Part shown: piece after piece, positions 16,124 through 43,866 of the stretch
Numbering within the stretch: position 1 is the stretch's first letter
Layout: every line of letters begins with the position of its first letter
Source of the DNA: Alphaproteobacteria bacterium
Lineage (GTDB): Bacteria > Pseudomonadota > Alphaproteobacteria > UBA2966
DNA length: 64,000 nucleotides
Direction: 5' to 3'
Assembly (NCBI GenBank): GCA_964291395.2
Contig: OZ219856.1
Coordinates: 1,120,001 to 1,184,000, forward strand
Program-made: the position numbers and the translations under genes
The notes under the pieces: model-generated
Told to the model about the DNA's origin: nothing
Seen by the model: the letters and a program-made list of their open reading frames with translations, nothing else
Database searches by the model: none

Positions 16124-18559
16124 ATGGCCAGTGACAGGGCGAAGCCAAGTAGTTTGGGTGCTGAACCGGCGGAGAGCGGAGGGGCGGTCGAGCCGTCGTT
16201 CCGGAGTGCCCTCCCGCACTTCCTGCCGCTGGCGGTCTTCCCGCTGATCGTCAACGCCGCGATTCACGGCGGCTGGTGGATCGCGGCTCCCTTCGCCTTC
16301 TTCGCCCTTCCGGGGCCGCTGGATATCGCGTTCGGTGCTGACGAGCGAAACATGGATCCGGTCAAGACGCCGGAAAGCCGGCTGCTCTGGTATGAGCTGC
16401 CGGTTTGGGGATGGGCGTTCCTCTGGCCGGTGACGTTCGTATTCGTGCTCTGGCAAATCCTTGTCGCCGGCCATCTCGCGATCTGGGAAGCCGCTTTGAT
16501 GACCGTCGTGCTGGCCACCGAGGCCCAGGCGGTCTTCATCGTCGGTCACGAACTGGTCCACCGGCGCGCGACGTGGGAGCGGCGTCTGGGCGAGTTTCTG
16601 CTCGCGTCCGTCTCATACCCTCAGTACGCCACGGAGCATGTCTATATTCACCATGCTCTCGTCGGCACGCCGCTGGACGTGGGGTCCGCGCCCAAGGGCC
16701 AGAGCATCTGGCGGTATTTCCCCCGCGAAGTGGCGAGCAACCTACTCGGCGCCTGGAAGGTTGCGCGCGACCGGCTCGCGCGCCGCCGCTTGCCGGTCTG
16801 GCACCACACCAACCCGTTCTGGCGCTACGGCATCGAAACCGCCTTCTGGTACGCGTTGATCTATTGGCTGGGCGGTCCGTGGGCGATCCCGGTCTATGTC
16901 GTCATGTGCCTCGGCGTCGTCTTCTCGATGAAGATCAGCAACTATATCCAGCACTACGGTTTGCGCCGCGTCCGTCTGCCCAACGGCCGGTTCGAAAAGG
17001 TCCGGCCCCGTCATTCCTGGAGCACTGACTGCAGGTTCAGCAACTGGATGTTCTACAACATGCAGCGGCACCCGGACCATCATGCCGTGGCGAGCCGGCG
17101 CTACCCGCTGTTGCAGCACCACGCCGGGAACGAGTCGCCGCAACTGCCGGGAGGCTACGCCAAGATGTTCAATCTGGCCGTCCGTCCGAAACGCTGGTTC
17201 GAGACGATGGATCCCTTGGTCGACGGCTGGCGCGCGCGCTTCTATCCCGAGGTCGACGACTGGAGCGCCTACGACAGTCCGGTCTCCGCGGCGCGTCCGG
17301 AGGCCTTCGACGCGATCGTCGAGATCTTTGGCGCCGCGCCGCGCCTCGCCGCATGGATCGAACGCAACCCGGAACTGCTCGAGAGTCTCCAGGACAGGGA
17401 ATTCACCGACCTCGATCTCCCGGAGGGTTTCGGACCGGACCCGGAAACCGAGGCGGTCGCCCGACGGGGCCTGACGCGCCTCTACTGGACGCACGAGTTT
17501 GGCTCTTCCGAAATGAAGGAGCGGATCGCCGAGATCCCGGTTCAGGACGTGGACGACGCGGTAGACACCGTGCGGAACTGGTCGAACGACAAGGCGTTCC
17601 AGATCGGCATGCATACCTTGCGTGGCAACCTGTCGCCGGTCGAGGCGGGAACGGCGTTGTCCAACGTCGCCGAGGCCTCGATCTCCGCCGTGTTGTCGGC
17701 CGTCACGGAGGACTCCGCCCACAGGCGCGGACCGAGCGGTGAAGGCGGTGTCGCGGCAGTCGTTCTGGGCGAACTGGCCAGCGGGGAAGCGGCACCCGGC
17801 GCCGAGCTCGATGTCTTTTTCGTCTATGTAGGCGCCGCCGTCGATCGCAAAGCCCTGTGCCGGCGCTTCCGCGAAGCCCTGGCCGGTCTGTCCCGCGACA
17901 GCCTGCTGTTCGCCCCGATGCCGCGCGGCGCCGGTAAGGAGCGGGCCGCGTGGTCTCTCGACGATTTGGCGGACCATTGCCGGACTGGCGCGCTTCCGGA
18001 TCTGACTCGGACACGTCGTGTCTTCGAATTCGGCGAGTCGGGAATCGGAAGGCGGTTCGACGACGCACGGCGCGAAAGTCTTGCTCATGGGGCTGCTCGC
18101 GACGCGCTCATCGCGGAGTTGCGGGACGGGGCCGGGCGCGCGGTCGAACCGGGCCTCTCGTCTCTCGACGACATGCGGGGCGGCCTCCGGGATGTCGAGC
18201 GCGCCGCCCGGTTGCTGCGATTGACCCATACCGGAAACGACCCGGATGACCCGGCACCCACCGCCGCCTCGGTCTTCCGTGGCGCCGGTGCCGGGCGGCT
18301 CGCGGACGCCGCGACCCTGTGGCGCGGCCTGCGGGGCATTCTGCGGCTGGTCGGAGGGGACGGTTTCGCGGTTGAGGCAGCGGGTCCGAAGGTCAAGGCC
18401 GCCGTCGCGAGGGCCTGCGGGGCGGAAGATTTCGACGCGCTGACCGCCGCAGTCCGCGATACGGCCGCCTCCGCCTCCGCCGAAATCGATACCCTTGTCG
18501 GAAGGAATGTCTCCCCGGCTGGGAGCGACGCCGGTTCCGAAGCGTCCGGTCCGTCTTGA
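16124..18559 (+). CDS. AlkB-type membrane di-iron monooxygenase/desaturase fused to a GlnE adenylyltransferase-like domain
   Basis: N-half: TM helices plus HELVH, EHVYIHH, NYIQHYG, MQRHPDHH; C-half: GAAPRLAAWIERNPELLESL, VRNWSNDKAFQIG, ALSNVAEASI, VLGELASGEAAPGAELDVFFVY, RGGLRDVE resembling the GlnE C-terminal module. Confidence 0.78.
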   Translation: MASDRAKPSSLGAEPAESGGAVEPSFRSALPHFLPLAVFPLIVNAAIHGGWWIAAPFAFFALPGPLDIAFGADERNMDPVKTPESRLLWYELPVWGWAFLWPVTFVFVLWQILVAGHLAIWEAALMTVVLATEAQAVFIVGHELVHRRATWERRLGEFLLASVSYPQYATEHVYIHHALVGTPLDVGSAPKGQSIWRYFPREVASNLLGAWKVARDRLARRRLPVWHHTNPFWRYGIETAFWYALIYWLGGPWAIPVYVVMCLGVVFSMKISNYIQHYGLRRVRLPNGRFEKVRPRHSWSTDCRFSNWMFYNMQRHPDHHAVASRRYPLLQHHAGNESPQLPGGYAKMFNLAVRPKRWFETMDPLVDGWRARFYPEVDDWSAYDSPVSAARPEAFDAIVEIFGAAPRLAAWIERNPELLESLQDREFTDLDLPEGFGPDPETEAVARRGLTRLYWTHEFGSSEMKERIAEIPVQDVDDAVDTVRNWSNDKAFQIGMHTLRGNLSPVEAGTALSNVAEASISAVLSAVTEDSAHRRGPSGEGGVAAVVLGELASGEAAPGAELDVFFVYVGAAVDRKALCRRFREALAGLSRDSLLFAPMPRGAGKERAAWSLDDLADHCRTGALPDLTRTRRVFEFGESGIGRRFDDARRESLAHGAARDALIAELRDGAGRAVEPGLSSLDDMRGGLRDVERAARLLRLTHTGNDPDDPAPTAASVFRGAGAGRLADAATLWRGLRGILRLVGGDGFAVEAAGPKVKAAVARACGAEDFDALTAAVRDTAASASAEIDTLVGRNVSPAGSDAGSEASGPS

Positions 18560-20874
18560 GTCCGCCGGCGCACCTGCCGCGTGGAACCCTGAAGAAGGCC
18601 GCCGTCGCGGACCTCGGTACGATCGAGGTGCCGGTGCTGACGCCGCATTTCGAATTTCGATCGATCGAAGACGGGCAGGTGCTCCTGCTGTCCGAAACGT
18701 TCAACACGTTGCTCCATGGGCGGATCCTTTGCGATCTGCTGCCGCTGCTCGACGGCAGGCGCTCGCGGAACGACATCGTCTCCGCGCTTGCCGGTTCGCA
18801 TTCGGAGTCTGACGTTCTGACCGCGCTCGCCTCTCTCGCGGCCAAGGGCTACGTCGTCTCGGGCGAATACGCCATGGAACGGGGAGCGGCAGCGTTCTGG
18901 TCCTCCCTGGGCGCGTCGCCGCGCTGGGCCGAGGAACGCTTGGCGGCGGCGAGGGTGGCTGTCGTCGGCGACGACGGCCGTCTCGCCCGGCCGCTAGACG
19001 TCATGGGCGTGGACGTGGGTGCGGACAGCCCGACGCTCTCGGTCATCGTCTGCGTCGACTATCTCGACGAACGGCATGACGCCGTCAACCGGCGCCATAT
19101 CTCCTCCGGCGCACCGTGGATGGCGGTCAGGCCGAAGGGCGTGCAACCCCTCTTCGGCCCCGTCTTCCGGCCCGCGGAGCAGGGCCCGTGCTGGGCTTGT
19201 CTGGCCCACCGCCTGCGTGGCCACCAGGAGGTCCACACGTTCCTGCGCAACGTCGCCGGCGAAGACACCGCTTTTCTGCCCCGTGCCGCCGAGCCCGCCG
19301 TTGTGGACGCGGTATACGGCCTCGTCGCCACCGAAATCGCCAAGTGGCTGGTTCTCGAGGAGGCGGCGCCCCTTCACGAGCACGCGATCACGCTGGATGT
19401 GAGTCATCTGAAGGCCGAGCACCATGCCGTCATGCGCCGTCCGCAGTGTTCCGTCTGCGGCGACGAGGCATCGTATCGCACCGACCGGCCGGCACAGCCA
19501 GTGCGACTCCAACCGAGCCCGAAAGGCGTCTGCAACAGCGGCGGCGTGCGCTCGGTATCGCCGGAAGAGACTCTCACGCGGTATCGCCATTTGATCAGTC
19601 CCGTCAGTGGTATCGTGACCTGGGTTGCCCGCGCCACGGAGGAGACCGATCCCTGGCTGCACGTCCACTGGGCCGGTAGCAATCTGGCGCTCCGGATCAA
19701 GAATCTGAGCTCGCTCAGGCGCAGCCTGCGGAGCAAGAGCGCCGGCAAGGGGAGCACGGCGAGCCAATCGGAGGCGAGTGCGCTCTGCGAGGCGATCGAA
19801 CGCTATTCCAGTGCCTTCCACGGCGACGAAATTCGCCGCCGCCGGCGATTGTCAGACTTCGCGGCGGCGGGTGAGGCGGAGGCGGTCCACCCCAACGATG
19901 TCCAGCTCTTCAGCGGTCGGCAGCTGGATCATGCGGAGGAGATCAACGCCCGCGGCCATCCCTACAACGTTGTCCCGCCACGCTTCGACTCCGAGAGGAA
20001 TGTCGACTGGTCGCCCGTGTGGTCGCTCACGCAAGGCCGGCATCGTTATCTGCCTACGTCCATGCTCTACGGCATGACGCCGGAACAGCGCGGCGATTCT
20101 GGCCTCTGGGCGGACTCCAACGGCTGCGCTGCCGGCAACACGCTGGAGGAAGCCATCCTGCAGGGGTTTTTCGAGCTGGTAGAACGCGACGCCTTCGCCA
20201 TCTGGTGGTACAACCGGCTTCGCTTGCCCGAGGTGAATCTGGAAAGTTTCGGAGATTCCTACTTGGCGTCGGCCGCCGACTACTACCGCCGCCATCATCG
20301 CGACATGTGGGTGCTGGACGCGACCAGCGATCTCGGCATCCCCGCCTTCGTTGCGCTCTCGCGCCGCACCGACGTCGAGACGGAGGACATCATCTACGGT
20401 GCGGGCGCGCATTTGGACCCGCACGTCGCGGCGCTCCGCGCGGTGTGCGAGATGAACCAGTGTTTGACCTGGGTCCCCCGCCCCGGGGATGCTGCCGCGC
20501 GCTACGGCGTCGACGATCCGATGTGTCTTTGGTGGTGGAAGAACGCAACTCTCGCGGACCATCCTTGGCTGGCGCCGGCTCCAGGCTCCGCACCGCGCGG
20601 CAGGTCGGACTATCCGGTTCCCGTTACGGCGGACCTGCGGGAAGACGTGGAGCGCTGCCGTGCATTGGTGGAAGCCAGGGGCATGGAATTCCTGGTCCTC
20701 GACCAGACGAGGCCCGACGTCGGCATGCCGGTGGCGCGCGTGATCGTGCCCGGTCTGCGCCACTTCTGGGAACGCTTCGCGCCGGGACGCCTCTACGACG
20801 TGCCGGTTGAGATGGGGTGGCGGGACGGTCCGCTCGACGAAGCAGATCTCAATCCCGTTCCCGTCGTCGCGTGA
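18556..20874 (+). CDS. Fused E1-like/YcaO cyclodehydratase (TOMM/azoline-forming)
   Basis: GPCWACL, PQCSVCG, SAGKG, ALCEAIERYS, DSNGCAAGNTLEEAILQGFFELVERDA, Pro-rich C-terminus LNPVPVVA; TTG start overlaps upstream stop. Confidence 0.93.
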   Translation: MSPPAHLPRGTLKKAAVADLGTIEVPVLTPHFEFRSIEDGQVLLLSETFNTLLHGRILCDLLPLLDGRRSRNDIVSALAGSHSESDVLTALASLAAKGYVVSGEYAMERGAAAFWSSLGASPRWAEERLAAARVAVVGDDGRLARPLDVMGVDVGADSPTLSVIVCVDYLDERHDAVNRRHISSGAPWMAVRPKGVQPLFGPVFRPAEQGPCWACLAHRLRGHQEVHTFLRNVAGEDTAFLPRAAEPAVVDAVYGLVATEIAKWLVLEEAAPLHEHAITLDVSHLKAEHHAVMRRPQCSVCGDEASYRTDRPAQPVRLQPSPKGVCNSGGVRSVSPEETLTRYRHLISPVSGIVTWVARATEETDPWLHVHWAGSNLALRIKNLSSLRRSLRSKSAGKGSTASQSEASALCEAIERYSSAFHGDEIRRRRRLSDFAAAGEAEAVHPNDVQLFSGRQLDHAEEINARGHPYNVVPPRFDSERNVDWSPVWSLTQGRHRYLPTSMLYGMTPEQRGDSGLWADSNGCAAGNTLEEAILQGFFELVERDAFAIWWYNRLRLPEVNLESFGDSYLASAADYYRRHHRDMWVLDATSDLGIPAFVALSRRTDVETEDIIYGAGAHLDPHVAALRAVCEMNQCLTWVPRPGDAAARYGVDDPMCLWWWKNATLADHPWLAPAPGSAPRGRSDYPVPVTADLREDVERCRALVEARGMEFLVLDQTRPDVGMPVARVIVPGLRHFWERFAPGRLYDVPVEMGWRDGPLDEADLNPVPVVA

Positions 20875-30429: not shown

Positions 30430-33371
30430 TGCAGGACACAAGGCCGGAATACGCATCGATAGCCGAACTCGCCGCTCGCTCCGGTACATCCGTGCCCTGC
30501 GCCGGCAACTTGCCGGTGAAACTCGACGACCCGGATGGTGTCTGGTTCATTGACCGGGGCGCCGTCGATCTGTTCTTGGTCGAATTCAAGGACGGGGTGG
30601 AGCAGGCGCCGCCGCAGCACCTGCTGCGCCGCGAATCAGGCAGGTTGCTGCCGGGTGTCGCACCAGACGAACAGGGCGATGACAAAGACACTACGCTCAG
30701 CCTGATAGCCAAAGGATTGCCGGGTACCCTTCTGAAGCGCCTGCCGGCATCCTTGCTGTCCGAGATCCATCCAACGGAACTGGCGGAACAGACCGATACT
30801 TGGCTGACCGCCATTACCGACACGCTTTCGCGTTTCGTAGGCCGCATTCCGCGTCCGACTGCGCTGGCCGAACCCGGTCTGACCCGGACTCTGGCCCCTT
30901 GTACGCTATCCGTACGGCGCGGCGTGGTGTGGGTATCCGAACCGTCGCGCGGCGCAAGCCTGTTCATGGATATGGTCGATCAGGCGGAACTGGCCGAGGC
31001 GAGCGGTCCGCACGAAGCCGTGATACCGCTGACGCGGACAAGCTGGCTCACCTTGCTCGACGAGGCAACAGTTTCAGGCAAGTCAACCGAAACACTGGCG
31101 GAGCAAGGCATGCTACTGCCGGCGCTTGCTTCCTTTCACGCGGTTGCTTTCGCCTTGGAACGCCTTAACCGTCGACTGGCCGTGGTCGATGATGCGAATC
31201 TCGAACGCGCTCGGATATCCAGCCGCCGCAAGGCCGAAAAAGCTGCCCGACAGCGGCTTTTCAATATCTATGACCACCCGATTGACCGGGATGCCGACGT
31301 CGAGGACACAGCTCTGGCGGATGCCCTGCACATCATCGGCCGCCATCAAGGAATCGATTTCAGGATTCCAGTACGCTCGGGACCTTCCGATTCTCCGGTC
31401 GGCCTCGTCGACGTTCTTGACGCGTCAGGTGTGCGCGCTCGGCGCGTGCGATTCAAGGCCGAGGGCAACTGGTGGCGCGGCGACAGCAACGCGATGCTGG
31501 CATTCCGCGCCAAGGACGGCCGGCCCGTTGCGCTGCTGCCGGGAATGTTCGGGCGCTACCGGGAAATCGACCCGGTCAGTAGGCGCAGTGTCCGGATTAC
31601 GGCGGATCGCGCCGACGCGCTGGAGGAAGAAGCTTGGATGTTCTATCGGCCATTACCGTCGGGGAACGTGAAGCCGTTAGACCTGCTGGGTATCGCCCTG
31701 CATGGATCGGCCCCGGATCTGGCGCGGCTGGTGATTGCCGGGCTTCCGGGCGGCCTGATCAAACTGCTGCCGGCACTCGCGCTTGGATTCGTTGCGAATC
31801 ATATAATGGCGGGCGGAAGCGTCGGAGCGCTCTATGCCGTGGCCGTGACGCTGGCGGGGTTTGGCCTGCTCGGCGCACTGCTTCACCTGCTTCAAAGCAC
31901 GGCGATGATGCGGCTCGAGGGGCGCTCGGCGTCGCGGGTCGAAGCCGCCTTCTGGGACCGCCTCATGCGCCTTCCGCCAAGCATTCTGCACCGTCAACCA
32001 GCCGGCGATCTGGCCATGTCGGGAATGACGTTCCAGAATCTTCGCGATGGCATGCAGGGAGTCGTCGCCGATAGCCTGCTATCAATGGTTTTTCTGCTTC
32101 CGGTTTTTGGTGTCATCTTCTTCTACGATGCAACCCTCGGAGTCATCGCCCTCGTCTTCAGCTTGGCTTCGCTGCTGGTTACCGTAGCCTTGGGGTTGTG
32201 TCAGATTTCACCTTATGGGCGGATGATCGGCGCGGTACGTCGCGTAGCCGGCCGGCTGTTTCAGATCGTGGGCGGTATCGTCAAGCTGCGCGTGGAAAAC
32301 GCGGAAGGGTCGGCTTTCGCTATCTGGGCGCGGGATTATCGCGAGCAGAAACGCGCGGAGCTCGAACTGGGCGCGCTTGAGGGACATTCGCGGGCATTCG
32401 GTGCCGCGCTCCCCTTTCTTGCCGGTGGGGTAATACTGTTCGTGGTGGTAACGGTGGGAGATCGGAACCTCCCGGTCGGCGATTTCCTCGTCGTTTACAC
32501 CGTCTTTATCGTTTTCCAGGCCGCCATCGCCCGGCTCGGCGAGTCCTTCGGCACCATTGCCGCCATGCTGCCGGCGTTCGATCAGATGCGCCCGCTGCTC
32601 GCTGCAGTTCCTGAAACCGAGGTCGAAGGAGAGCCGGTCGAACGTCTGGGCGGCGAAATTCTGTTCGACCACGTTTCCTTTCGGTACGATCCCGACGGGC
32701 CGTTGATCCTCGACGATGTCACGATTCGCGCCGGTCCCGGCGAATTCGTCGCGATTGCCGGCGAGTCCGGTGCCGGCAAGAGCACCCTGTTCCGGCTCGC
32801 GCTTGGAATCGACCGGCCATCCGCTGGCGCGGTGTATTACGACGGACGCGATCTGAGACACCTGAACCTGAAGCAAGTGCGCCGGAAAATCGGCGCGGTT
32901 CCCCAGTCAGTGCGGCTCCATCCCCAGGATCTCTGGGACAATATCGTCGCGCACCACGAGGAAACGACCACCGGGGAAGTATGGCAGGCGGCCCGAGCCG
33001 CTGGGATCGAACGTGAAATCAAGGCCATGCCCATGGGCATGATGACGATGGTCGGGGCGAGCGGGGCTGTCTTGTCAGGCGGCGAGAGTCAGCGCGTCAC
33101 CATCGCCCGCTCGCTGATCGGCAGCCCGCGAATTATGCTGTTTGACGAGGCAACCAACTGGCTCGATAACGAAAGCCAAGCCGAGGTCATGCAGAACCTA
33201 GCCCTCCTGACCTCCACCCGGATCGTTATTGCACACCGCCTGTCCACGCTGGAACAGGCTGACCGCATCTACGTGATGCAAGCTGGAAAGGTCGTGCAAA
33301 GCGGCTCCTTCAACAAACTCATGGAGGTCGACGGGGTATTCAGAGAACTGGTCAGAAGGCAGGTCGCTTGA
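30429..33371 (+). CDS. NHLM-system ABC transporter permease/ATPase, peptidase-less partner
   Basis: Long N-terminal extension, ASGVRARRV, WWRGD, GESGAGKST, LSGGESQR, FDEATNWLD. Confidence 0.9.
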   Translation: MQDTRPEYASIAELAARSGTSVPCAGNLPVKLDDPDGVWFIDRGAVDLFLVEFKDGVEQAPPQHLLRRESGRLLPGVAPDEQGDDKDTTLSLIAKGLPGTLLKRLPASLLSEIHPTELAEQTDTWLTAITDTLSRFVGRIPRPTALAEPGLTRTLAPCTLSVRRGVVWVSEPSRGASLFMDMVDQAELAEASGPHEAVIPLTRTSWLTLLDEATVSGKSTETLAEQGMLLPALASFHAVAFALERLNRRLAVVDDANLERARISSRRKAEKAARQRLFNIYDHPIDRDADVEDTALADALHIIGRHQGIDFRIPVRSGPSDSPVGLVDVLDASGVRARRVRFKAEGNWWRGDSNAMLAFRAKDGRPVALLPGMFGRYREIDPVSRRSVRITADRADALEEEAWMFYRPLPSGNVKPLDLLGIALHGSAPDLARLVIAGLPGGLIKLLPALALGFVANHIMAGGSVGALYAVAVTLAGFGLLGALLHLLQSTAMMRLEGRSASRVEAAFWDRLMRLPPSILHRQPAGDLAMSGMTFQNLRDGMQGVVADSLLSMVFLLPVFGVIFFYDATLGVIALVFSLASLLVTVALGLCQISPYGRMIGAVRRVAGRLFQIVGGIVKLRVENAEGSAFAIWARDYREQKRAELELGALEGHSRAFGAALPFLAGGVILFVVVTVGDRNLPVGDFLVVYTVFIVFQAAIARLGESFGTIAAMLPAFDQMRPLLAAVPETEVEGEPVERLGGEILFDHVSFRYDPDGPLILDDVTIRAGPGEFVAIAGESGAGKSTLFRLALGIDRPSAGAVYYDGRDLRHLNLKQVRRKIGAVPQSVRLHPQDLWDNIVAHHEETTTGEVWQAARAAGIEREIKAMPMGMMTMVGASGAVLSGGESQRVTIARSLIGSPRIMLFDEATNWLDNESQAEVMQNLALLTSTRIVIAHRLSTLEQADRIYVMQAGKVVQSGSFNKLMEVDGVFRELVRRQVA

Positions 33372-33553: not shown

Positions 33554-34855
33554 ATGAAAGACCCCATCAACGCGACGGAACGCCTCCTCTCGAGAGCCGG
33601 GGAAGACAGCGCGTTTCGCGCGCGACTGCTCGCGAATCCGAAAGATGCAATAGAACGGGAATTCGGCTTGACGCTGGCCGAGGGCCACGAGATTCACGTG
33701 CACGAAGAAACCGATACCGCGACGCATGTCGTGCTTCCGCCGAGGAGTAAGCTCAGCGCGGAAGAACGGAAGGCGGCGATAACCGGCGCAGCCTCACTCG
33801 AGTTTCTCAAGAAGACAATGTACGATCCCGCACCTCCGATTCGCCCCCCCGGCCCGAAACCGATAACTGCCCGGGTGAGCGCCGTTACGCCCGAGACACT
33901 TGCCAAAGCGGGTAGAGAAAGCATCCGCCGCGGTCTCGTTTTCCTGGAATCCACTATCGACGAAAACGGGGCTTGGCACTGCATCCGGTTCAATGTGGCC
34001 GACCCGGACATTCCACGGCATTTCGAAAAACCCCCCTTTGTTTCGGCTCTCTGCGTACTTGCCCTCGAAAGTTGCGATGAAGCACGGGCCAAGGCCATGT
34101 GCGCCCGTACCAAGGCGTATCTTGCCGACACCATCGAATATCCCGGATTGTGGCGCTACTACCGTCATCTGCCCCAGGATCTTGACAGCACCACGCTCTG
34201 TTCACTCGCCATTGGGACTCACCCCTGGATTTTGCTGGAAAGGAACGTTCCGCGAATATTGGCGAATCGCGACGAGGAAGGTCGTTTCACGACCTGGGTG
34301 CTGGAGGAAGACGAACCCAATGTCGTGTCGACCTTTCGTCTCGAAGCGGACCCCATAGTCAATGCGAATGTCATCGCTTACCTTGGCGACCACCCCGAAA
34401 CCAAGGATGCCCAACGATGGTTGGAAACTTTGATTACCGAAGGCAGCCTTGAGGGATCGTCTAAATGGTATCCCGACACGGTTACGATCTACTATGCAAC
34501 TGCCCGTGCCATGATTCGCGCGCAGCCCGCCCTTGATCAACTACGCCCGATACTTGCGGATCGTATCCTGGGCTTGCGCGACGAGAAGGGAGAATTCGGC
34601 AACATCCTTCAGACCGCTCAAGCAGTGTCGGCGCTCTACAATATTGGAAGGCCTGAAAGCATCGACGCGAAATGCCAAGTGGAAAGGTTCATAGGCTCGC
34701 AACGTGAGGACGGTAGCTGGCCGGAGCTTCTCGCGTTTGGCGACCAATCGTTAAAGTGGGGCGCGATAGGGCGGATAGGGCATGGCTCTGAAGCCGTGAC
34801 CTCTGCGTTTTGCATCGAAGCTTTGGAGCGTCTCGTCGAAATCTTGAAGGCCTGA
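33554..34855 (+). CDS. NHLP leader domain fused to a prenyltransferase/squalene-cyclase-type (class II terpene cyclase-like) domain
   Basis: aa 1-79 colinear with the precursor leader; QW-like motifs RRGLVFLESTIDENGAW and FIGSQREDGSW; GLWRYY...PQDLDST. Confidence 0.75.
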   Translation: MKDPINATERLLSRAGEDSAFRARLLANPKDAIEREFGLTLAEGHEIHVHEETDTATHVVLPPRSKLSAEERKAAITGAASLEFLKKTMYDPAPPIRPPGPKPITARVSAVTPETLAKAGRESIRRGLVFLESTIDENGAWHCIRFNVADPDIPRHFEKPPFVSALCVLALESCDEARAKAMCARTKAYLADTIEYPGLWRYYRHLPQDLDSTTLCSLAIGTHPWILLERNVPRILANRDEEGRFTTWVLEEDEPNVVSTFRLEADPIVNANVIAYLGDHPETKDAQRWLETLITEGSLEGSSKWYPDTVTIYYATARAMIRAQPALDQLRPILADRILGLRDEKGEFGNILQTAQAVSALYNIGRPESIDAKCQVERFIGSQREDGSWPELLAFGDQSLKWGAIGRIGHGSEAVTSAFCIEALERLVEILKA

Positions 34856-35205: not shown

Positions 35206-35670
35206 ATGACCGTACGCTTCGAACCGCTTCTGACGATCCAGGTCGGCATCGACTACACCGACAAGATCGGAGAGACGCCGTACGGCTGGCGTCGCAACGA
35301 CGCCGTAAATGGCCATTTTGAGGGACCCAAGTTGCGGGGACGCGTCCTGCCGGGCAGTGACGACTGGTTGCTCGTGCGGCGTGACGGGACGTTCAACCCT
35401 CATTGCCGCATGCTGCTGGAAACGGACGATTCCGAACACATCATCATGACATACACCGGTGTCCGGCACGCCACCCAGGATGTGCTGGATCGGCAGGAAC
35501 GTGGCGAACCGGTCGACCCGGGCGAGGTTTATCACCGTATCACGCCTCTGTTCGAAACGGCGTCCGAAAAGTACGACTGGCTCAACAGGATCATCACCGT
35601 GGGCCGGGGTCAGCGTATTTTGAAGGACGGTCACAGCGTTCCCATTTACGATATCTTTCAGGTGCTGTAG
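35206..35670 (+). CDS. DUF3237 (UPF0311) protein
   Basis: GETPYGWRR, GHFEGPKLRGRVLPGSDDW, YHRITPLFET, YDWLN. Confidence 0.85.
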   Translation: MTVRFEPLLTIQVGIDYTDKIGETPYGWRRNDAVNGHFEGPKLRGRVLPGSDDWLLVRRDGTFNPHCRMLLETDDSEHIIMTYTGVRHATQDVLDRQERGEPVDPGEVYHRITPLFETASEKYDWLNRIITVGRGQRILKDGHSVPIYDIFQVL

Positions 35671-35726
35671 CTGGTGCCTTCGTCGCGTAGCGAGAGCATT
35701 TCCGAGAACATTCCCTACAAATCGCC

Positions 35727-36185
35727 ATGTCCGAGATGGAAGCCGAACTGTTGATGAAGTTGACGTTGGAAGGAGTGACGCTTCGGGACGTGGGAGCGAC
35801 ACCGAGAGGTGAGCGGCAGTTCGTCACCATCGGCGGCGGGCGCTTCGAGGGGCCGGACATGCGGGGTACGGTGATGCCGGGCGGCAGCGATTGGATGACC
35901 GGGCGCGGAAGCGGATCCGCGGTGATGAACGGTCGGCTCACGCTCCGGACTGATGACGGCCACACCATCGGTATGCGCTATCGCGGCGCCATGGACGGCC
36001 CGCCGGATGTACTCGCCCGGCACGCGCGGGGCGAACCGGTCGGCGAATCGGAATATTACTTGAGGTTCGCTACCTACTTCGAAGCGACCTTGTACAAATA
36101 CGGTTGGCTCAATCACTTGATCGCCATTGGAGTCGGCTACCGCGAAGTAGCGGGTCCGGTCTACGACGTGTACCGCGTCCTCTAG
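35727..36185 (+). CDS. DUF3237 (UPF0311) protein, tandem paralog
   Basis: GATPRGER, GGRFEG, PGGSDW, LRTDDG, YGWLN. Confidence 0.85.
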   Translation: MSEMEAELLMKLTLEGVTLRDVGATPRGERQFVTIGGGRFEGPDMRGTVMPGGSDWMTGRGSGSAVMNGRLTLRTDDGHTIGMRYRGAMDGPPDVLARHARGEPVGESEYYLRFATYFEATLYKYGWLNHLIAIGVGYREVAGPVYDVYRVL

Positions 36186-36289
36186 CGGAGCGCGGAGAGA
36201 CACATCGAAGAGAATCCCTGCCGCGTAAGGTTAGTGGGCCAGCCGGTTGTCTACTCGAAAAGCGGTCCAGGAATGTTCGAAGGTGCGCC

Positions 36290-37165
36290 ATGAAGGAACA
36301 GGTCACATTCTACAGTGAAGGAACCGAACTCGCCGGGGATATCTATCTGCCCGATACTTCAGCAGAAGCGCCACGGCCCGGGATCGTACTGTTGGGCGGC
36401 TACACCTACGTCAAGGAGGTGCATGGGCCCGATTTCGCCGAGCGTGTCGTCGATGCGGGATATGCCGCTATCGCCTTCGACTACAAAGGTTGGGGCAGCA
36501 GCGACGGTCCCTCGAACCGGTTGGATCCCCACGGCCGCGTCTGGGATGCGCACGCGGCCCTGACCGTTCTGGCGCAGCGCGACGACGTCGACGCGGAACG
36601 CATCGGCGTTCTGGGCTGGAGTTACGGGGGTGCCACCGCCGTGTGGCTTGCCGCAATCGACCCGCGTATCCGCTGCGTCTCCGCCCTGATCACGGTCGGC
36701 AACGGGCGTCGCTGGATGGAAAGTGTTCGTTCGGCGGAAGAAATCGATGTCCTGCACGCCCGCGCCGATGAAGACCGGATCCGCCGGGTTCGAACCGGCG
36801 AATCGGAACGCGCGCCAATACCGACGATCCTCCAAATGAGTGCACACGAGCGCGAGCTGCTGGATAATGCTCGCGCGAGGGAAGGGGTCGAGCCCGGCCT
36901 CATTCCCCTTGAGTTCATCGACGAGACCTTGGCGTTCAATCCCGAGTGGGTCGTCGACAAGATTGCACCGCGGCCCGTGCTGTTAGTCGCCACCGAGAAC
37001 GACGGCGTCACGCCTCCCGAGGACAGCCGAATCCTTTATGAGCGGGCCGGTGAACCGAAAAAGTTCGTGATGATTCCCGATTGCGGGCACTTCGAATTCT
37101 ATTCCGGAGCTCCATTCGATCAGGCGATGAAGGAATGCGTCGACTGGTTTGACGCGCATCTGTGA
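36290..37165 (+). CDS. Alpha/beta hydrolase
   Basis: FDYKGWGSSDG, nucleophile elbow GWSYGG, DGVTP, GHFEFY. Confidence 0.88.
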   Translation: MKEQVTFYSEGTELAGDIYLPDTSAEAPRPGIVLLGGYTYVKEVHGPDFAERVVDAGYAAIAFDYKGWGSSDGPSNRLDPHGRVWDAHAALTVLAQRDDVDAERIGVLGWSYGGATAVWLAAIDPRIRCVSALITVGNGRRWMESVRSAEEIDVLHARADEDRIRRVRTGESERAPIPTILQMSAHERELLDNARAREGVEPGLIPLEFIDETLAFNPEWVVDKIAPRPVLLVATENDGVTPPEDSRILYERAGEPKKFVMIPDCGHFEFYSGAPFDQAMKECVDWFDAHL

Positions 37166-37211
37166 GGAGCCGCGCGGCGGGGTCCGGTGGCGGCGGCCGC
37201 GGGCGGGCATC

Positions 37212-38198
37212 TCAACGGATATCCGAAGTGATCTTGCCGAGCTGGCGGATGGTGTTCAGGACCTTTTCCTGCTCCATGCCCGGCCACTGGACACGGCAGA
37301 TTAGGTGGTTGAATCCGAGCTCCTCCTTGTAGCGCAGTATCTGGTCCTTCACGGATTCCGGATCCCCGATGAAGAAGCTTTCGCGCACGAGCTGGTCGAA
37401 AATCGAACCGGTCCCGGTGTCCTGCAGGCCCCACGCCCCGTAGAATCCGTATTTGTAGCCCAGTGGTCCCGCAGCTTCCTCGAGTGCCTCGGCATTGGTC
37501 GCGCCGATGTGACATTCACGCGTCAGAGGAAGCTCACTCGGAAACGGCTTGCCTGCCGCTGCCAGCTCGGCGCGATACATCGGCATCTGGCGCTCCAGCA
37601 ACTCGAACGAAGCGTTGAAGGGCGGCACCCAGGAATCGCCGATGCGGGCGGCGCGGCGCACTGCCGGGTCTACGTGCGCCGCAACCCAGATCGGTGGATG
37701 CGGCGTCTGCAGCGGCCTGAGGCCGACGCCTAGGCCGTCCACCGTGTAGTGCTTGCCGCGATGCGTGACCAAGTCCTGGGACATCAGTTTCCGGAGGAGT
37801 TCCACCCCTTCACTGAGCCGCGATGCCCGTTCCCCGAGCGGAATACCGAATGCGTTGAACTCCTCTTCCCGATAACCGAGGCTCACGCACAGCACGTACC
37901 GGCCGCCCGTGAGGAGGTCCATTGTCACCGTTTCCTCGGCGACCTCTACCGGGTTTCTGAGTGGAAGCACGACAGTGTTGGGGCCGATGGTCATGTCACC
38001 GGCCTCGGTGATCAAGCGTGGTAGAAGCTGGTGCGGGGAAATGAACTGCATTGGCCCGACGAGCCAGTGCCCGCCGGTCCAGAGCGACGCAAACCCGCTG
38101 TCGCGCGCAACGCGAACCTGCTCGATGAGATTTTCGAGCACGCCCGTCGGAGCGATGTCTTCCTTGAAGTGATTGAGGACGTAAAGGCCAATTTTCAT
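37212..38198 (-). CDS. LLM-class flavin-dependent oxidoreductase
   Basis: MKIGL, GFASLW, LPLRNPVEVAE, LGYREEEF, PHPPIWVAA, RRAARIGD; ATG at 38198 chosen as start. Confidence 0.88.
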   Translation of the reverse strand: MKIGLYVLNHFKEDIAPTGVLENLIEQVRVARDSGFASLWTGGHWLVGPMQFISPHQLLPRLITEAGDMTIGPNTVVLPLRNPVEVAEETVTMDLLTGGRYVLCVSLGYREEEFNAFGIPLGERASRLSEGVELLRKLMSQDLVTHRGKHYTVDGLGVGLRPLQTPHPPIWVAAHVDPAVRRAARIGDSWVPPFNASFELLERQMPMYRAELAAAGKPFPSELPLTRECHIGATNAEALEEAAGPLGYKYGFYGAWGLQDTGTGSIFDQLVRESFFIGDPESVKDQILRYKEELGFNHLICRVQWPGMEQEKVLNTIRQLGKITSDIR

Positions 38199-38368
38199 GC
38201 CTCTTCTGGCTCCCCTTGCGGGTTTTGTCAGGCCGCATCCTATCCCGAGACTATGGTGCGGTCCCATGTCCAGGCAAGCGAAACACATCCATCGACAGTG
38301 GCGGGAATATGTACCAGCGCGGCGGCGTAAAGGTGCGCCGAGAGCGGCTCTGCCTGAGCCGGTAGCTC

Positions 38369-38581
38369 GCGCTTGTCGAAGCCAGGGGGCTGGAGTTCCT
38401 GGTGCTGGACCAGACCCGGACCCGACATCGGCATGCCTGTGGTGCGAGTCATCATACCGGGCATGCATCATTGTTGGGCAGGAGTCGCGGCTGGACACCT
38501 GTACGATCTGCCAGTCAGCATGGCCGCCGCAAGCACCCTCTCGGTGAAGCCGATTTGAATCCCGCACCTGTAGTCGCGTAA
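38369..38581 (+). pseudogene. 3' remnant of a second YcaO cyclodehydratase, two frameshifts
   Basis: ALVEARGLEFLVLDQTR / PDIGMPVVRVIIPGMHHCW...LYDLPV / GEADLNPAPVVA* matches the C-terminus of 18556..20874. Confidence 0.9.
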
Positions 38582-38590
38582 AGAGACGAT

Positions 38591-39709
38591 ATGGATATTG
38601 ACGAGGCAGTCGCACTTACCCAGGACCGTCTCGCCGAAGAAGCCGGCACCATGGGTGAGTTGCTCGGGCACTTTCGAAATGGGATTTCGCCGATTCTCAT
38701 CGGAGACCCGGAATGGGAACGCATACTCGAATGTGCCAGGAAACTTCCAGTTACAATGGGTGCCCTTCCATTCGGCTTTGAACTGCCGCTGCATGAACGC
38801 AGGCCAGAGGCGGATTTCGGCGTCTCCCTGGCGAGCGGAACCAGAACGGCGGCGTTTTTCCGGGAGCGCGCGAGGACCGACAAGACGGATGAGACCGCGA
38901 GGTCGATCGCTCGGCTGTTCAGACAAATGGATGCCGAAAAATCACCTCTGCGTGAAATTGTCGGCCGCAAGGTGATGCTGGAATATGACATCGGCTCGGC
39001 CCGGGACGGTGAATGTTCGCATCCGGGAGTGTTCCTGCGGCCCGGCGAACGCCCGATCATCGGCGCCCGTGGTCAGGTGCATGATGTCGGTATGGCGGTC
39101 GACGCGCTCGTTTCCTGCGTAGGCTGGGAGAGGAATGACGCCGAGCGGGAGAATGTCGAACGAGTCTACCTAGCGCAGCCGGGAGATACGCGCATGGATT
39201 CGTTCGGTGTGTTCCCGTCTCGCTCGCGGGCAATCCGCTTGGCGATCATGGGCTTCAGGGCGCAGCAGGAAATATGTGCCTATCTCGAAAGCACGGGTTG
39301 GCCGGGTCAGATCTCGGCCGTCGACTCTGTGATTTCACGTTTCAAGGAACGCGTGAATATCGTCAGGACTGGAGCGAATATTGATGTGCGGGGAGAGGGT
39401 GTCGGTCCGACGCTCGGCCTTACGCTCATCGTCAAGCAGAGATATACAAAGGATTCACGTTATTGGCTCGACGGCCTGACCGATTGGGATCCGTTTTTGG
39501 AAGCCCTGAGCCATGAGGATTTTGTAGTTCCGGAGAAGCTTGCGGCGCTTGCTGGCTGGGTTTCGAAACCGACAACGCTTTTTGCGAAATCTGGGCGTTA
39601 TGTATTGCTACGTGGCATTCACCACATAAAGCTGGTTATATCTGGAAATCGGCTTCGAAAAGCCAAGGCCTATGTGTTCATGGTGCTTTCCGGAGCAGTT
39701 TCCTTCTGA
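38591..39709 (+). CDS. RiPP-associated protein, candidate ABBA-fold prenyltransferase
   Basis: FGFELPL, ADFGVS, MLEYD, IRLAI, YLESTGWPG, HHIKLV, terminal KAKAY; between ycaO remnant and precursor. ORF is solid, function is inferred. Confidence 0.55.
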   Translation: MDIDEAVALTQDRLAEEAGTMGELLGHFRNGISPILIGDPEWERILECARKLPVTMGALPFGFELPLHERRPEADFGVSLASGTRTAAFFRERARTDKTDETARSIARLFRQMDAEKSPLREIVGRKVMLEYDIGSARDGECSHPGVFLRPGERPIIGARGQVHDVGMAVDALVSCVGWERNDAERENVERVYLAQPGDTRMDSFGVFPSRSRAIRLAIMGFRAQQEICAYLESTGWPGQISAVDSVISRFKERVNIVRTGANIDVRGEGVGPTLGLTLIVKQRYTKDSRYWLDGLTDWDPFLEALSHEDFVVPEKLAALAGWVSKPTTLFAKSGRYVLLRGIHHIKLVISGNRLRKAKAYVFMVLSGAVSF

Positions 39710-39849: not shown

Positions 39850-40101
39850 ATGAGAAGTGGCGATGAGATGCTGAAGCAAATCGTCGAGAAATCCGCCTTG
39901 GACGCGGAATTTAGGCAACAGCTTCTTGCGGATCCAAAGACTACCATCAGTCAGGAATTGGACATTACGATTCCCGAATCCATGACGATCAAGGTCCATG
40001 AGAGCGACATGCAGACGGTGCATCTCGCGTTGCCGCCGGATCCGAACATCACCGAGGAGCAACTCGAAGCTATCTCAGCCGGGCTTTGCTGCTGCTGGTA
40101 A
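39850..40101 (+). CDS. srpE: NHLP-leader (proteusin) RiPP precursor, core LCCCW
   Basis: DAEFRQQLLADPK, VHE, HLALPP, ITEEQLEAISAG leader end, 5-residue core; symbol from recalled sponge srp clusters. Confidence 0.92.
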   Translation: MRSGDEMLKQIVEKSALDAEFRQQLLADPKTTISQELDITIPESMTIKVHESDMQTVHLALPPDPNITEEQLEAISAGLCCCW

Positions 40102-40156: not shown

Positions 40157-40331
40157 ATGTATAGCTTGAACTGATCCTCTGTTCCCGAGCGGGAGCAGGG
40201 CGGGATTCGGTATGTGCGTTCGGGGCTGATATCAATAGGGGACCGATCCGGAGAACACCTGGAGCACATAGGCCTTGGCTTTTCGAAGCTGATTCATTCA
40301 ATGCGACACGTCCATCACGAGACCTGTGCGG

Positions 40332-41204
40332 ATGTTCCCTGACCGCGGAACCGCCGAAAAATGGATTATCGGCCAAGGCTGGACGAAGGGTTTCCCATGC
40401 CCCCAGGGCGCTTCGTTCAGTGTCCTGGTTCTGGCGCTGGCATGCTTTTGCTTGCCGACCGCACATGCCCTTGCCCAAGAAGAAACGCCGGAGGACAAAG
40501 GCCTAAGGATTGCGCGCGAATCAAGCGCCCGCAACGACGGCTTCGGGGATTTCACCGCTGGATTGACGATGTTGCTGCGCGATCGGCACGGTCGGGAGAG
40601 CGTCCGTAAGATGCGCTTCAAGGTGCTGGAGGTGTCGGGGGACGGCGACAAGAGCCTGTTCGTGTTCGATCAGCCGCAAGACGTGCGGCGAACTGCGCTC
40701 TTGACCCACGCTCACATCAACACTGAGGACGACCAGTGGCTGTATCTGCCGGCCCTGAAAAGAGTGAAGCGCATCAGCGCTTCGAGGCGTTCAGGGTCAT
40801 TCATGGGAAGCGAGTTTTCGTACGAAGATATGAGTCCTCCGGAGGTGGAGGAATACACCCACAAATATCTTCGTGACGAGCCCTGCGGCGAACTCACCTG
40901 TACGGTGACCGAGCAAGTCCCCTTGGATAAGAAATCCGGATACAGCCGCAAGATCGTTTGGCAGGATACAGGCGAGCTTCGAGTCTGGAAGATGGAGCTT
41001 TACGACCGAAGGGGCTCGCACTTGAAGACGCTCACTTTTGCGGCCTATCGCCAATATCTGGATCAATACTGGCGGGCAGGAAAACAGACGATGGTGAATC
41101 ATCTGACCGGCGCGAGCACGGTGCTTCGCTGGACCGATTTTCGGTTCCGCACCAATCTCGATGACAGCGAATTCACCCACACGGCACTTCGACGCGTGCG
41201 CTGA
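40332..41204 (+). CDS. Outer membrane lipoprotein-sorting (LolA-like) protein
   Basis: Signal-like segment, DDQWLYLPALKRVKRIS, SFMGSEFSYEDM; start uncertain. Confidence 0.85.
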   Translation: MFPDRGTAEKWIIGQGWTKGFPCPQGASFSVLVLALACFCLPTAHALAQEETPEDKGLRIARESSARNDGFGDFTAGLTMLLRDRHGRESVRKMRFKVLEVSGDGDKSLFVFDQPQDVRRTALLTHAHINTEDDQWLYLPALKRVKRISASRRSGSFMGSEFSYEDMSPPEVEEYTHKYLRDEPCGELTCTVTEQVPLDKKSGYSRKIVWQDTGELRVWKMELYDRRGSHLKTLTFAAYRQYLDQYWRAGKQTMVNHLTGASTVLRWTDFRFRTNLDDSEFTHTALRRVR

Positions 41205-42433
41205 TGCGCTTCGGCGGCGCAATTGCGGCCCTCGTGCTCATGGGTGCCGTAGGTGCCGAGGCGCAGACTCTTGATTTTTCGGGCGACCTGAGCCTGCAGG
41301 CGCGATGGTATCCGCAATCGCCGGCCTTCCCGGGTCAGCGTTCAGGCACCGGCGGGCTGGTCTTTGAGCCGACGCTTTACGGGGAGGTCGCACAAAAAAC
41401 CAGCTTCACCCTGACCCCGCTTTATCGATACGACAGCGCCGATTCGCGGCGCACGCATGCGGACCTGCGCGAGGCCTACCTGCTGATGTATGGAGACTGG
41501 GGCGAGAATTCCTGGGAGTTTCGGCTGGGATTTGATCGCGTTTTCTGGGGCGTGGCCGAGCTGCACAACCTCGTGGATATCGTCAACCAATTGGACCTCG
41601 TCGAGCACCCGCGCAATCGACCCAAACTTGGTCAGCCTATGGCGTACCTGACGATTTCCGGTGACTGGGGCGTCGCTGAATCGTTCCTGCTGCCGTATCA
41701 TCGTAAGCGCACGTTTCCGGGGCGTTCCGGGCGCCTCCGGTCGGCCCGCACGATCGACGAGAACGCCTTGTACGAGAGTGGTGCCGAAGAACGCCATGTG
41801 GATTTTGCGGTTCGCTACAGCCACGGCGTGGGCGTGCTTGATTTCGGCCTGAGTGCCTTTGTTGGAACGAGTCGCGAACCCTTGTTTCTTGCCAGCCATC
41901 AATCCGAGCCGTTGTCGGCAGGTGACGCGCCCTTGATCCCGTACTACGAGCAGATTCGGCAATTCGGGATCGACGCGCAAGTCACGACTGGGCCTTGGCT
42001 TTACAAGATGGAAGCCATTCGCCGTAGCGGAGCGCGCAATCTCCTGGGCCAGGAGGAGGATTACCGCGCCTTCATCTTCGGCTTGGAACACATTCTCTAC
42101 GGCCTGTTTGGTTCCCCAACGGACTTGACCTTGCTCGCCGAGTGGCACTACGACGACCGCGGACGCCGTGCTACAAGTGTCTGGGAGAACGACCTGTTCA
42201 TCGCGGGCTTCCTTGCGTTCAACGATGTGCAGGGCACCGAGCTCGTGGCAAGCGTCCTGGGTGACTTCCGCCATGAATATCGTGCGTTGAACCTGGAACT
42301 GAAACGCCGCCTGACGGATAGTTGGTCGATGCGCTTGGAAATGATCGCGAACCTAAGCGTGGACCCGCGGGATCTGACCTACGATGGACGGCGCGATAGC
42401 TTCCTGGGCGGGGAACTCACGTTCAGATTCTGA
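41204..42433 (+). CDS. Outer membrane beta-barrel protein
   Basis: Signal peptide (AEA-Q), DLREAY, VFWGVAE...DIVNQ, C-terminal LTFRF; coupled to the LolA-like gene. Confidence 0.75.
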   Translation: MRFGGAIAALVLMGAVGAEAQTLDFSGDLSLQARWYPQSPAFPGQRSGTGGLVFEPTLYGEVAQKTSFTLTPLYRYDSADSRRTHADLREAYLLMYGDWGENSWEFRLGFDRVFWGVAELHNLVDIVNQLDLVEHPRNRPKLGQPMAYLTISGDWGVAESFLLPYHRKRTFPGRSGRLRSARTIDENALYESGAEERHVDFAVRYSHGVGVLDFGLSAFVGTSREPLFLASHQSEPLSAGDAPLIPYYEQIRQFGIDAQVTTGPWLYKMEAIRRSGARNLLGQEEDYRAFIFGLEHILYGLFGSPTDLTLLAEWHYDDRGRRATSVWENDLFIAGFLAFNDVQGTELVASVLGDFRHEYRALNLELKRRLTDSWSMRLEMIANLSVDPRDLTYDGRRDSFLGGELTFRF

Positions 42434-42591: not shown

Positions 42592-43866
42592 GTGATGTTG
42601 CCGGACGGTAAATCCTTACGGAAGATCGCAGTTGTTGGGCGAGGAACCGCAGGATCCCTGGCGGCCGCCAGCGTGACGCATCTTCACCCCGACAGCGACC
42701 ACGAGCTACACCACATATATGATTCGCGCATCCCGGTCATCGGAGTGGGCGAAGGCAGTTGGCCGAGCCTGGTTCGGCAATTGCAGCAACTGACGAATTT
42801 GCCCCATGAAGCCGTCCAGCAGCGTTTGAAGGGAACTCGTAAGTACGGCGTTGCATTCGAGGGATGGGGTCGGCGCAATCGAGAATTCACCCACTACTTC
42901 ACGCCGCAACAGGTGTCTTACGCCTACCACCTATCCGCCGACTTGATGGCGGACTTGCTGCACGAAGGTACGCGCGCACGCCACATCGACGCGAATGTGC
43001 TCGATATCACCAAGGTGGAGGGCGGTGCGCAGGTGAGATTCGAGGGCCTAGCGCCGGAACTCTACGACTTGGTCTTCGATGCCCGCGGGTTTCCCAAAGA
43101 GCTTCATCCCGACCGGCACATCAACATGTCTTTCATCCCCACCAATACAGCCGTCATCCGCCGCTGCCCGGCAATAATCGAGGAAGAGGAGGATGGGCCG
43201 GTTCTGCAACATACATACACCCGTGCGGTTGCGCGTCCGCACGGTTGGGTATTCGTTATTCCGCTTACAGTACACACCTCCTACGGGTACATCTTCAACC
43301 GCGATGTATCCAGCCTTGCCGAAGTCGAATCGGACTTTGACGCATTCCTTGAATCCGATGGCGTATCGGAATTCGAGCAACGCGCCGTCATTCCGTTTCC
43401 CAATTTTGTCCACCGTCAGATGTACGATGGCGCGGTGGCCCGCATTGGCAATGCGGCGGCCTTCATGGAGCCTCTCGAAGCAACGGCGATCGTATCTGCC
43501 CAGTTACAGATCGGGATGGTTCTCCACATACGTCTTAACCGTTCGGTAGAGAATCTTGAGCGCGACGCGCCGGTGGTCAATCGATTTCTCATCAACAACA
43601 TGCTCTGCTACGGCCTGTTCGTCGGTTGGCATTATTCCTGTGGCTCCAAGTACGACAGCGAATTCTGGCGTCGCGCTCGAGACTACGCCTGGCCACAACA
43701 CCGTAAGGCAGCGGACCCCGAGGTGGTGGGGTGCGCCGCGCTCCGTAAATTCGACGAAATGATCGAACTGATGAACCGGTCGGTCATCGACAAAGCGGAC
43801 TGGGATCGCATGTGCGCGGTCCCTCTCACCAGTTATGCCCAGATGTCTCAGGGTCTCGGCTGCTAG
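42592..43866 (+). CDS. srpI: Flavin-dependent tryptophan/peptide halogenase
   Basis: GRGTAG, IGVGEG, candidate catalytic Lys in GTRKYGV, GWVFVIP, FMEPLEAT; precursor ends in Trp; symbol from recall. Confidence 0.85.
   Translation: MMLPDGKSLRKIAVVGRGTAGSLAAASVTHLHPDSDHELHHIYDSRIPVIGVGEGSWPSLVRQLQQLTNLPHEAVQQRLKGTRKYGVAFEGWGRRNREFTHYFTPQQVSYAYHLSADLMADLLHEGTRARHIDANVLDITKVEGGAQVRFEGLAPELYDLVFDARGFPKELHPDRHINMSFIPTNTAVIRRCPAIIEEEEDGPVLQHTYTRAVARPHGWVFVIPLTVHTSYGYIFNRDVSSLAEVESDFDAFLESDGVSEFEQRAVIPFPNFVHRQMYDGAVARIGNAAAFMEPLEATAIVSAQLQIGMVLHIRLNRSVENLERDAPVVNRFLINNMLCYGLFVGWHYSCGSKYDSEFWRRARDYAWPQHRKAADPEVVGCAALRKFDEMIELMNRSVIDKADWDRMCAVPLTSYAQMSQGLGC

Follow-up and report, generated by a model that had tools for sequence, protein, structure and literature searches.

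The srp locus

We analysed a stretch of 64,000 nucleotides from an Alphaproteobacteria bacterium (GenBank assembly GCA_964291395.2, contig OZ219856.1, positions 1,120,001 to 1,184,000 of the forward strand; hereafter the window), in which the gene at 38591..39709 on the plus strand lies next to a peptide precursor gene. Its 372-aa product, referred to below as the 38591 protein, is predicted by a fold model and a Foldseek search to be an alpha-beta-beta-alpha (ABBA, or PT-barrel) fold protein and is a putative peptide prenyltransferase. By its gene content the window is the known srp cluster, reportedly described in sponge microbiomes by Nguyen et al. in JACS in 2021, because a precursor with the core LCCCW and genes for a YcaO enzyme and a Trp halogenase are all found in it.

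The precursor gene (39850..40101, +) encodes an 83-aa SrpE-like peptide of the NHLP (proteusin) type (TIGR03793, 66.7 bits), which ends with ...NITEEQLEAISAG followed by the core LCCCW, its C-terminal end reading ...NITEEQLEAISAGLCCCW. The YcaO cyclodehydratase encoded at 18556..20874 (+; PF02624, E 8.5e-97) is SrpC-like and carries an N-terminal winged-helix domain, and the 424-aa product of 42592..43866 (+; PF04820, E 3.2e-43) is a SrpI-like flavin-dependent Trp halogenase whose PDB relatives are Trp halogenases. According to the accessible parts of two papers (PMC10858898, PMC10286304), SrpE has the core LCCCW, SrpC turns three cysteines into thiazolines and SrpI adds bromine to the C-terminal Trp. 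A third study, as far as its accessible text goes, describes a 252-bp precursor gene with an ITEEQL motif that is highly transcribed across phyla in sponges (bioRxiv 10.1101/2023.06.09.544420); the precursor gene of the window has the same length of 252 bp.

The sequence at 38591..39709 is a real, widely conserved gene. It appears as a single open reading frame (ORF) with an ATG start in the ORF list of the window, and a word-indexed search with its product returned 995 homologues at E ≤ 1e-3. The 120 homologues listed are 82–98% identical and nearly all 370–374 aa long, which confirms the ATG start. When the 50%-identity representatives were searched exhaustively, 581 clusters matched at E ≤ 1e-3, 243 of them at ≤ 1e-10 and 93 at ≤ 1e-30. 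The median ratio of non-synonymous to synonymous substitution rates (dN/dS) is 0.19 for 148 random pairs among 81 srp-type copies. A scan for promoters and terminators around the gene gave nothing above chance. As annotated, the gene overlaps by 24 bp with a minus-strand ORF for a luciferase-like monooxygenase (37212-38615), and we rejected this overlap as not genuine: the Pfam match of the monooxygenase ORF begins at residue 140, so that its true start probably lies at lower window coordinates, and the overlap would then be gone.

Conserved residues and predicted fold of the 38591 protein

We aligned the 38591 protein with the 90 near-full-length sequences among the 150 representatives listed (91 rows, 25–62% identity to the query). 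Residues E64, D75, E131, Y132, D133, R211, R213, R216, D265, G276, K316, H345, K347, K359 and Y361 are each kept in 76–98% of the rows, with conservation values of 0.90 for E64, 0.91 for D75, 0.86 for E131, 0.85 for Y132, 0.92 for D133, 0.93 for R216, 0.86 for D265, 0.90 for G276, 0.98 for H345, 0.91 for K347, 0.89 for K359 and 0.92 for Y361. An earlier note, made from the letters and ORF translations alone, had suggested an ABBA prenyltransferase on the strength of several short strings, all of which are present: FGFELPL (61-67), ADFG (74-77), MLEYD (129-133), IRL (215-217), IDV (264-266), LGL (275-277) and HIKLV (345-349). These motifs hold the best-kept positions of the family, and since the most conserved positions of the 91-sequence alignment sit in them, they are not a product of chance. 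The string KAKAY, which the same note had called terminal, exists at 357-361 and is followed by 11 further residues, so it is not the C-terminal end.

An AlphaFold2 model built from this alignment is of high quality, with a mean predicted local distance difference test score (pLDDT) of 95.8, a predicted TM-score (pTM) of 0.93 and 345 of the 372 residues at or above 90. DSSP assigns to it N-terminal helices and then the strand pairs 61-66/75-81, 127-132/146-149, 201-207/215-222, 259-267/270-280 and 325-332/335-351, with two helices between successive pairs and an extra strand at 354-368. The alternating strand and helix pattern that had been read off the sequence is borne out, in the form of five alpha-beta-beta-alpha repeats.

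Foldseek returned 79 matches in the PDB at E ≤ 1e-3, and among the matches listed, 40 out of 40 are ABBA aromatic or peptide prenyltransferases. EpzP is the best of them (E 2.2e-6), and PatF, NphB/Orf2, FamD1, IptA, AmbP1, AmbP3, DMATS1, CloQ, AtaPT, AuraA, PagF and LimF are among the others; the listed matches have a probability of 1.00 and 357–453 aligned columns, i.e. they run over the whole length. A protein-language-model search, which is independent of Foldseek, agrees: Trp_DMAT clusters account for 12 of the 30 named neighbours at ≥ 0.9, and PTase_Orf2 clusters follow at 0.88. The resemblance proposed in the earlier note, for which it had suggested a Foldseek comparison, was therefore recovered, with only ABBA prenyltransferases among the matches listed, and the 38591 protein almost certainly adopts the ABBA fold. 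It is best described as a protein without a Pfam model that belongs to a known kind of enzyme and lies in a known cluster.

In known ABBA enzymes, Lys, Arg and Tyr residues lining the barrel bind the diphosphate, and an acidic residue serves as base or metal ligand. In the model, R211, R213, R216, H345, K347, K359, Y361, E64, D75, E131, D133 and D265 lie on or beside strands and are candidates for these roles.

Conservation of the gene in srp-type loci

Scanning species-representative genomes, we found 430 stretches that encode a relative of the 38591 protein, and kept the best 80, in which the relative is 76–86% identical to it. These 80 loci come from metagenome-assembled genomes (MAGs) titled Acidobacteria/Bryobacterales, Alpha-, Gamma- and Deltaproteobacteria, Binatia, Gemmatimonadota, Opitutales, Rhodothermales and others. 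Counting partners within ±10 kb and at ≥ 55% identity, we found that the ABBA gene is accompanied by ABC2 in 67 of the 80 loci, by the cyclase fusion described below and by YcaO in 66 each, by a SrpE-like precursor in 60, by the desaturase fusion in 52, by ABC1 in 45, by the 183-aa ORF in 42, by the LolA-like gene in 35, by the MMPL gene in 28, by the halogenase in 23 and by the DUF1302-like gene in 12. The ABBA gene is a conserved core gene of the srp cluster.

Most often the genes follow one another as cyclase fusion, desaturase fusion, YcaO, ABBA gene, precursor, MMPL, ABC2 and ABC1. In 58 of the 80 loci the YcaO gene is directly upstream of the ABBA gene and ends 10–26 bp before it, whereas the cyclase fusion holds this position in only 16; in most related loci, the nearest partner of the ABBA gene is YcaO and not the cyclase. 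The precursor lies within 1 kb downstream in 56 loci, on the opposite strand in all 56. The window differs in that precursor and ABBA gene share a strand and YcaO is 18 kb away instead of 10–26 bp. Because the gene falls between YcaO (SrpC) and the precursor (SrpE) in the commonest order, gene order suggests the name SrpD, which is ours and was met in no paper searched. In the literature accessible to search, no paper gives the srp ABBA gene a role, and functions are published only for SrpC, SrpE and SrpI.

Although they come from MAGs of many phyla, the copies of the ABBA gene have a median dS of only 0.75 at the 76–86% protein identity given above. This combination is in keeping with reports that srp clusters have spread horizontally.

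A proposed leader-bearing partner with a terpene-cyclase-like domain

The gene at 33554..34855 (+) encodes an NHLP leader fused to a class II terpene-cyclase-like (MstE-like) domain, as assigned by TIGR03793, Foldseek and a profile comparison with the PDB. Residues 7-78 of its product constitute the NHLP leader (TIGR03793), which matches the leader of the precursor at E 9e-14, the two being 33% identical over 70 aa and staying in register as far as G78. The invariant pair G78-A79 falls at the position of the precursor's cleavage site, between AG and L. The protein could be a substrate of the C39 ABC transporter, which would cut and export it, or could use its leader to dock on partner enzymes.

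The remainder of the 33554 protein was modelled with moderate quality (pLDDT 66, pTM 0.64), from a shallow alignment. Foldseek found 31 matches for the model at E ≤ 1e-3, led by monodomain class II terpene cyclases; the leading ones are the small proteins 8pak/8paj, which resemble squalene-hopene cyclase (SHC), MstE, drimenol and drimenyl-diphosphate synthases, and SHC itself. A sequence profile compared with the PDB likewise retrieved drimenol synthase (E 2.3e-5), and the invariant D209-L-D211-S-T of the 33554 protein aligns on the D-L-D-T-T of that enzyme, a position that we take to be the class II acid motif.

Cyclase fusion and ABBA protein are encoded by separate ORFs, 3.7 kb apart in the window, and they are separate in 66 of the 66 related loci that have both. 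No fused prenyltransferase-cyclase relative was found among proteins of 652–2000 aa, which is weak evidence, and the eight longest relatives of the 38591 protein (404–540 aa) carry no extra Pfam domain. The earlier note had referred to cyanobacterial prenyltransferase-cyclase fusions acting on Trp and read the 38591 and 33554 genes as a split version of such an enzyme. Fusions of this kind do exist: the accessible part of a 2026 review (PMC13290415) describes NctPC, in which an ABBA-barrel prenyltransferase domain and an MstE-like cyclase domain are joined and which transfers a geranylgeranyl group onto Trp and then cyclises it. Since a fused enzyme acting on Trp is in print, the split reading is plausible by analogy, and it gains from the class II cyclase-like domain of the 33554 protein and from the co-occurrence in 66 of the 80 loci. 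What the note had missed is that the 33554 protein has an NHLP leader of its own, that the locus is the srp cluster already in the literature, and that YcaO rather than the cyclase is the ABBA gene's nearest partner in most related loci.

Precursor types and the acceptor residue

Related loci also encode second precursor types, with the cores WCCCGQ/N and MCCCGI; they were found in loci L038 (14767-20777), L039 (14950-20937), L054 (14678-14932), L056 (14890-15144) and L064 (13872-14126). In L038 and L039, a precursor of the WCCCG type comes with its own MMPL gene and with an ABBA paralogue at 51% identity, while no ABBA paralogue was seen in the examined part of the three MCCCGI loci. In L038, two methyltransferase genes stand between the WCCCG precursor and the ABBA paralogue. 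Two LCCCW-type precursors deviate: that of L002 (11243-11519, minus strand) reads in two frames, from either a frameshift or an assembly error, and that of L036 (11244-11495, minus strand) has the core LCCSW instead of LCCCW. A complex prediction of the 38591 protein with the precursor gave a median score of 0.21, as compared with a mark of 0.32, and argues neither for nor against binding.

Both precursor types that adjoin a copy of the ABBA gene (LCCCW and WCCCGQ/N) have exactly one Trp, and we tentatively name this residue (Trp83 in the window) as the prenyl acceptor, with somewhat less than even confidence. An active ABBA prenyltransferase could also act on the srp peptide elsewhere than at the Trp indole, i.e. 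at the C-terminal carboxylate, at a Cys thiol or thiazoline, or at the new N-terminus that leader removal creates. The sole core element common to LCCCW, WCCCGQ/N and MCCCGI is CCC, while the Trp shifts its position between the types and is missing from the last, and in linear, azole-containing cyanobactins, muscoride for example, the termini carry the prenyl groups. We nevertheless consider such an acceptor unlikely, given the single Trp beside each copy of the ABBA gene. Furthermore, Trp is named, in the accessible part of PMC13290415, as the residue modified by NctPC and by every characterised peptide prenyltransferase of the trans-IDS-like type (IDS, isoprenyl diphosphate synthase), MppC also targets Trp according to the text available of PMC12715784, and cyclodehydration is reported for each of the three Cys (PMC10858898, PMC10286304; both as far as accessible).

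Other genes of the cluster

The export genes of the window would serve NHLP-type peptides: a C39-peptidase ABC transporter (28219-30429, +; TIGR03796, 844 bits) is followed by a second ABC subunit (30429-33371, +; TIGR03797, 681 bits). Upstream of them, the domain scan found a transporter of the MMPL/RND type (25159-27513, +), and next to it lies a 183-aa ORF that is conserved but has no known family (27666-28217, +); downstream of the precursor it found a LolA-like protein (40326-41204, +), beside which a DUF1302-like protein (41204-42433, +) was assigned from a weak match below the Pfam cut-off. The MMPL-type, LolA-like and DUF1302-like genes recur in related loci, and together they look like an envelope route for a hydrophobic product. 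They would fit a lipidated product.

Ahead of the YcaO gene, the scan assigned to 16124..18559 (+) an 811-aa protein that joins a fatty-acid-desaturase-type domain to a GlnE-like nucleotidyltransferase region; a lipidic substrate would suit a membrane di-iron enzyme. Among the ORFs of the window that were scanned, no flavin azoline dehydrogenase turned up. The segment that separates the cyclase fusion from the ABBA gene (35206-38615) holds two DUF3237 genes, an alpha/beta hydrolase, whose best NCBIfam match is to an UilS-type lactonase, below the cut-off, and the luciferase-like monooxygenase. Save for one distant hydrolase match, these genes occur in none of the 80 related loci, and for this reason the segment looks like an insertion that splits the cluster of the window.

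Discussion

In this study we have documented the predicted fold of the 38591 protein, the constraint on its charged and Tyr strand residues and the linkage of its gene to those of YcaO, the cyclase fusion and the precursor. Taken together with the model, these point to an active peptide prenyltransferase that is a core part of the srp cluster for a peptide made by the ribosome and modified after translation (RiPP), and on balance we regard this as probable. In the mechanism that we propose, an isoprenyl diphosphate would be bound inside the barrel by R211/R213/R216, H345/K347 and K359/Y361, with the acidic E64, D75, E131/D133 and D265 providing the base, the metal ligands or both. While still bearing its leader, the precursor would be alkylated in its core, most likely at the indole of its single Trp; this would happen in the cytoplasm, before the C39 ABC transporter cleaves off the leader and exports the peptide. 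The separate class II cyclase-like protein (33554-34855) might then protonate and cyclise the attached chain, as the split counterpart of NctPC.

Several observations weigh against this interpretation. Scans of the 38591 protein against Pfam and NCBIfam matched 0 families, the 91 family members matched no prenyltransferase model in Pfam even at E ≤ 1, and sequence and profile searches of the PDB with the 38591 protein gave only chance-level matches and no ABBA enzyme; the curated models Trp_DMAT (PF11991) and PTase_Orf2 (PF11468) matched neither the query nor the 91 relatives. The Foldseek matches are distant, with a query-normalised TM-score of 0.36–0.53, a root-mean-square deviation of 6–11 Å and 7–13% identity. 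One of the top matches, PatF, is reportedly an inactive family member, and so the fold alone is no proof of activity. An isoprenyl diphosphate synthase gene is found neither in the window nor in the conserved gene set of the related loci, and the MCCCGI precursor type has no Trp. Finally, the published co-expression work, in its accessible part, reports only cyclodehydration and bromination, with the product still cryptic.

The presence of PatF among the best fold matches raises the alternative of a catalytically silent ABBA-fold protein, which might for example bind the precursor or present it to the YcaO enzyme encoded just upstream. The tight coupling to YcaO, at a gap of 10–26 bp in 58 of the 80 loci, speaks for such a helper role, and the finding that recombinant SrpC alone is poorly active and hard to purify (PMC10286304, accessible part) would fit a missing partner. 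We consider this quite improbable, as the charged and Tyr strand residues are kept at 86–98% across the 91 sequences, as expected of an active site, the YcaO enzyme already has its own N-terminal winged-helix domain, and the terpene-cyclase-like partner would be left without a substrate. Least probable of all is that the barrel prenylates a small molecule or serves a different chemistry, linked to the cluster by co-transfer only: most solved ABBA fold matches do act on small aromatics (phenazines, naphthalenes, indoles, diketopiperazines) and 20 of the 80 loci have no SrpE-like precursor within the stretch examined, but the gene forms an operon-like string with the YcaO and cyclase-fusion genes, the precursor adjoins it in 56 loci, and the conserved gene set holds no genes for a small aromatic substrate.

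Staying with an active peptide prenyltransferase, one can picture a complete product: a brominated pentapeptide with three thiazolines, bearing on its Trp a long isoprenoid chain which the split pair has cyclised to a polycyclic terpene. The cyclase would itself behave as a leader-tagged protein resembling a precursor and would be cleaved and exported by the C39 transporter, so that the last step would take place outside the cytoplasm, and the lipidated product would be passed on by the MMPL, LolA-like and DUF1302-like proteins. This picture in its entirety is a long shot.

The srp cluster is, according to the accessible part of a study of sponge microbiomes, among their most widespread and most highly transcribed biosynthetic clusters (bioRxiv 10.1101/2023.06.09.544420), and its product and role were still cryptic as of a 2025 review. 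For this product, cryptic since 2021, the gene pair described here gives a direct, testable prediction. Because the gene for a prenyl-attaching fold sits together with a terpene-cyclase-like gene, both in the conserved core, the mature srp peptide may carry an isoprenoid, possibly cyclised. Such a group, if present, would account for the lipid-type export genes, and the prediction shows chemists what mass shifts and what bromine isotope patterns they should look for. If active, the 38591 protein would be a possible new biocatalyst: a peptide prenyltransferase that works on its own, is probably guided by the leader and belongs to a family that no Pfam model covers. Its substrate would be the same short peptide as that of the brominase SrpI, which is already in use for peptide derivatisation.

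Comparison with known systems

The srp pair can be likened to NctPC by fold and description, not by sequence. NctPC was reportedly described by Hubrich et al. in Chem in 2024, and its substrate is said to be a cyanobacterial proteusin, i.e. a peptide with an NHLP leader as in the window. Both systems combine an ABBA prenyltransferase unit of low similarity to the cyanobactin enzymes, an MstE-like class II cyclase unit and a Trp-containing RiPP core, and products of this kind are termed terpene-RiPP hybrids in a second paper. They differ in that NctPC is fused while the srp units are on separate genes, in that the srp cyclase has its own NHLP leader, and in that the srp core is a 5-residue tris-Cys peptide which is also cyclodehydrated and brominated.

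MppC, likened here by description and not by sequence, is an ABBA enzyme that depends on the leader and attaches a geranyl group to Trp of a lanthipeptide with a Nif11 leader (PMC12715784, accessible part). It shares with the srp protein the soluble ABBA type, its RiPP cluster likewise combines a leader that is long and structured with an accompanying Trp brominase, and it acts on Trp while the leader is attached; for the srp ABBA protein we infer leader dependence from its cytoplasmic location and the logic of export. The substrate of MppC is in turn a lanthipeptide macrocycle with a Nif11 leader, its donor is geranyl diphosphate (GPP) and its target is indole C5, as far as the accessible text goes. 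PalQ, as described in the part of its source available, also prenylates a C-terminal Trp, and its fold differs.

With the cyanobactin F-family (PagF, LimF, PatF) and the classical ABBA/DMATS enzymes (NphB, CloQ, EpzP, DMATS1, AtaPT), the srp protein shares the barrel fold at 7–13% identity, and it has about 58 extra N-terminal helical residues before the first strand. The cyanobactin enzymes work without a leader, as stated in the accessible part of PMC12715784.

Compared with the published srp cluster, that of the window is split by inserted genes and has its precursor on the strand of the ABBA gene. The two are alike in the LCCCW core, the ITEEQL leader motif, the 252-bp precursor gene and the genes for YcaO and the Trp halogenase, and the published srp clusters and the ABBA-gene loci are alike in being spread across many phyla of sponge-associated MAGs.

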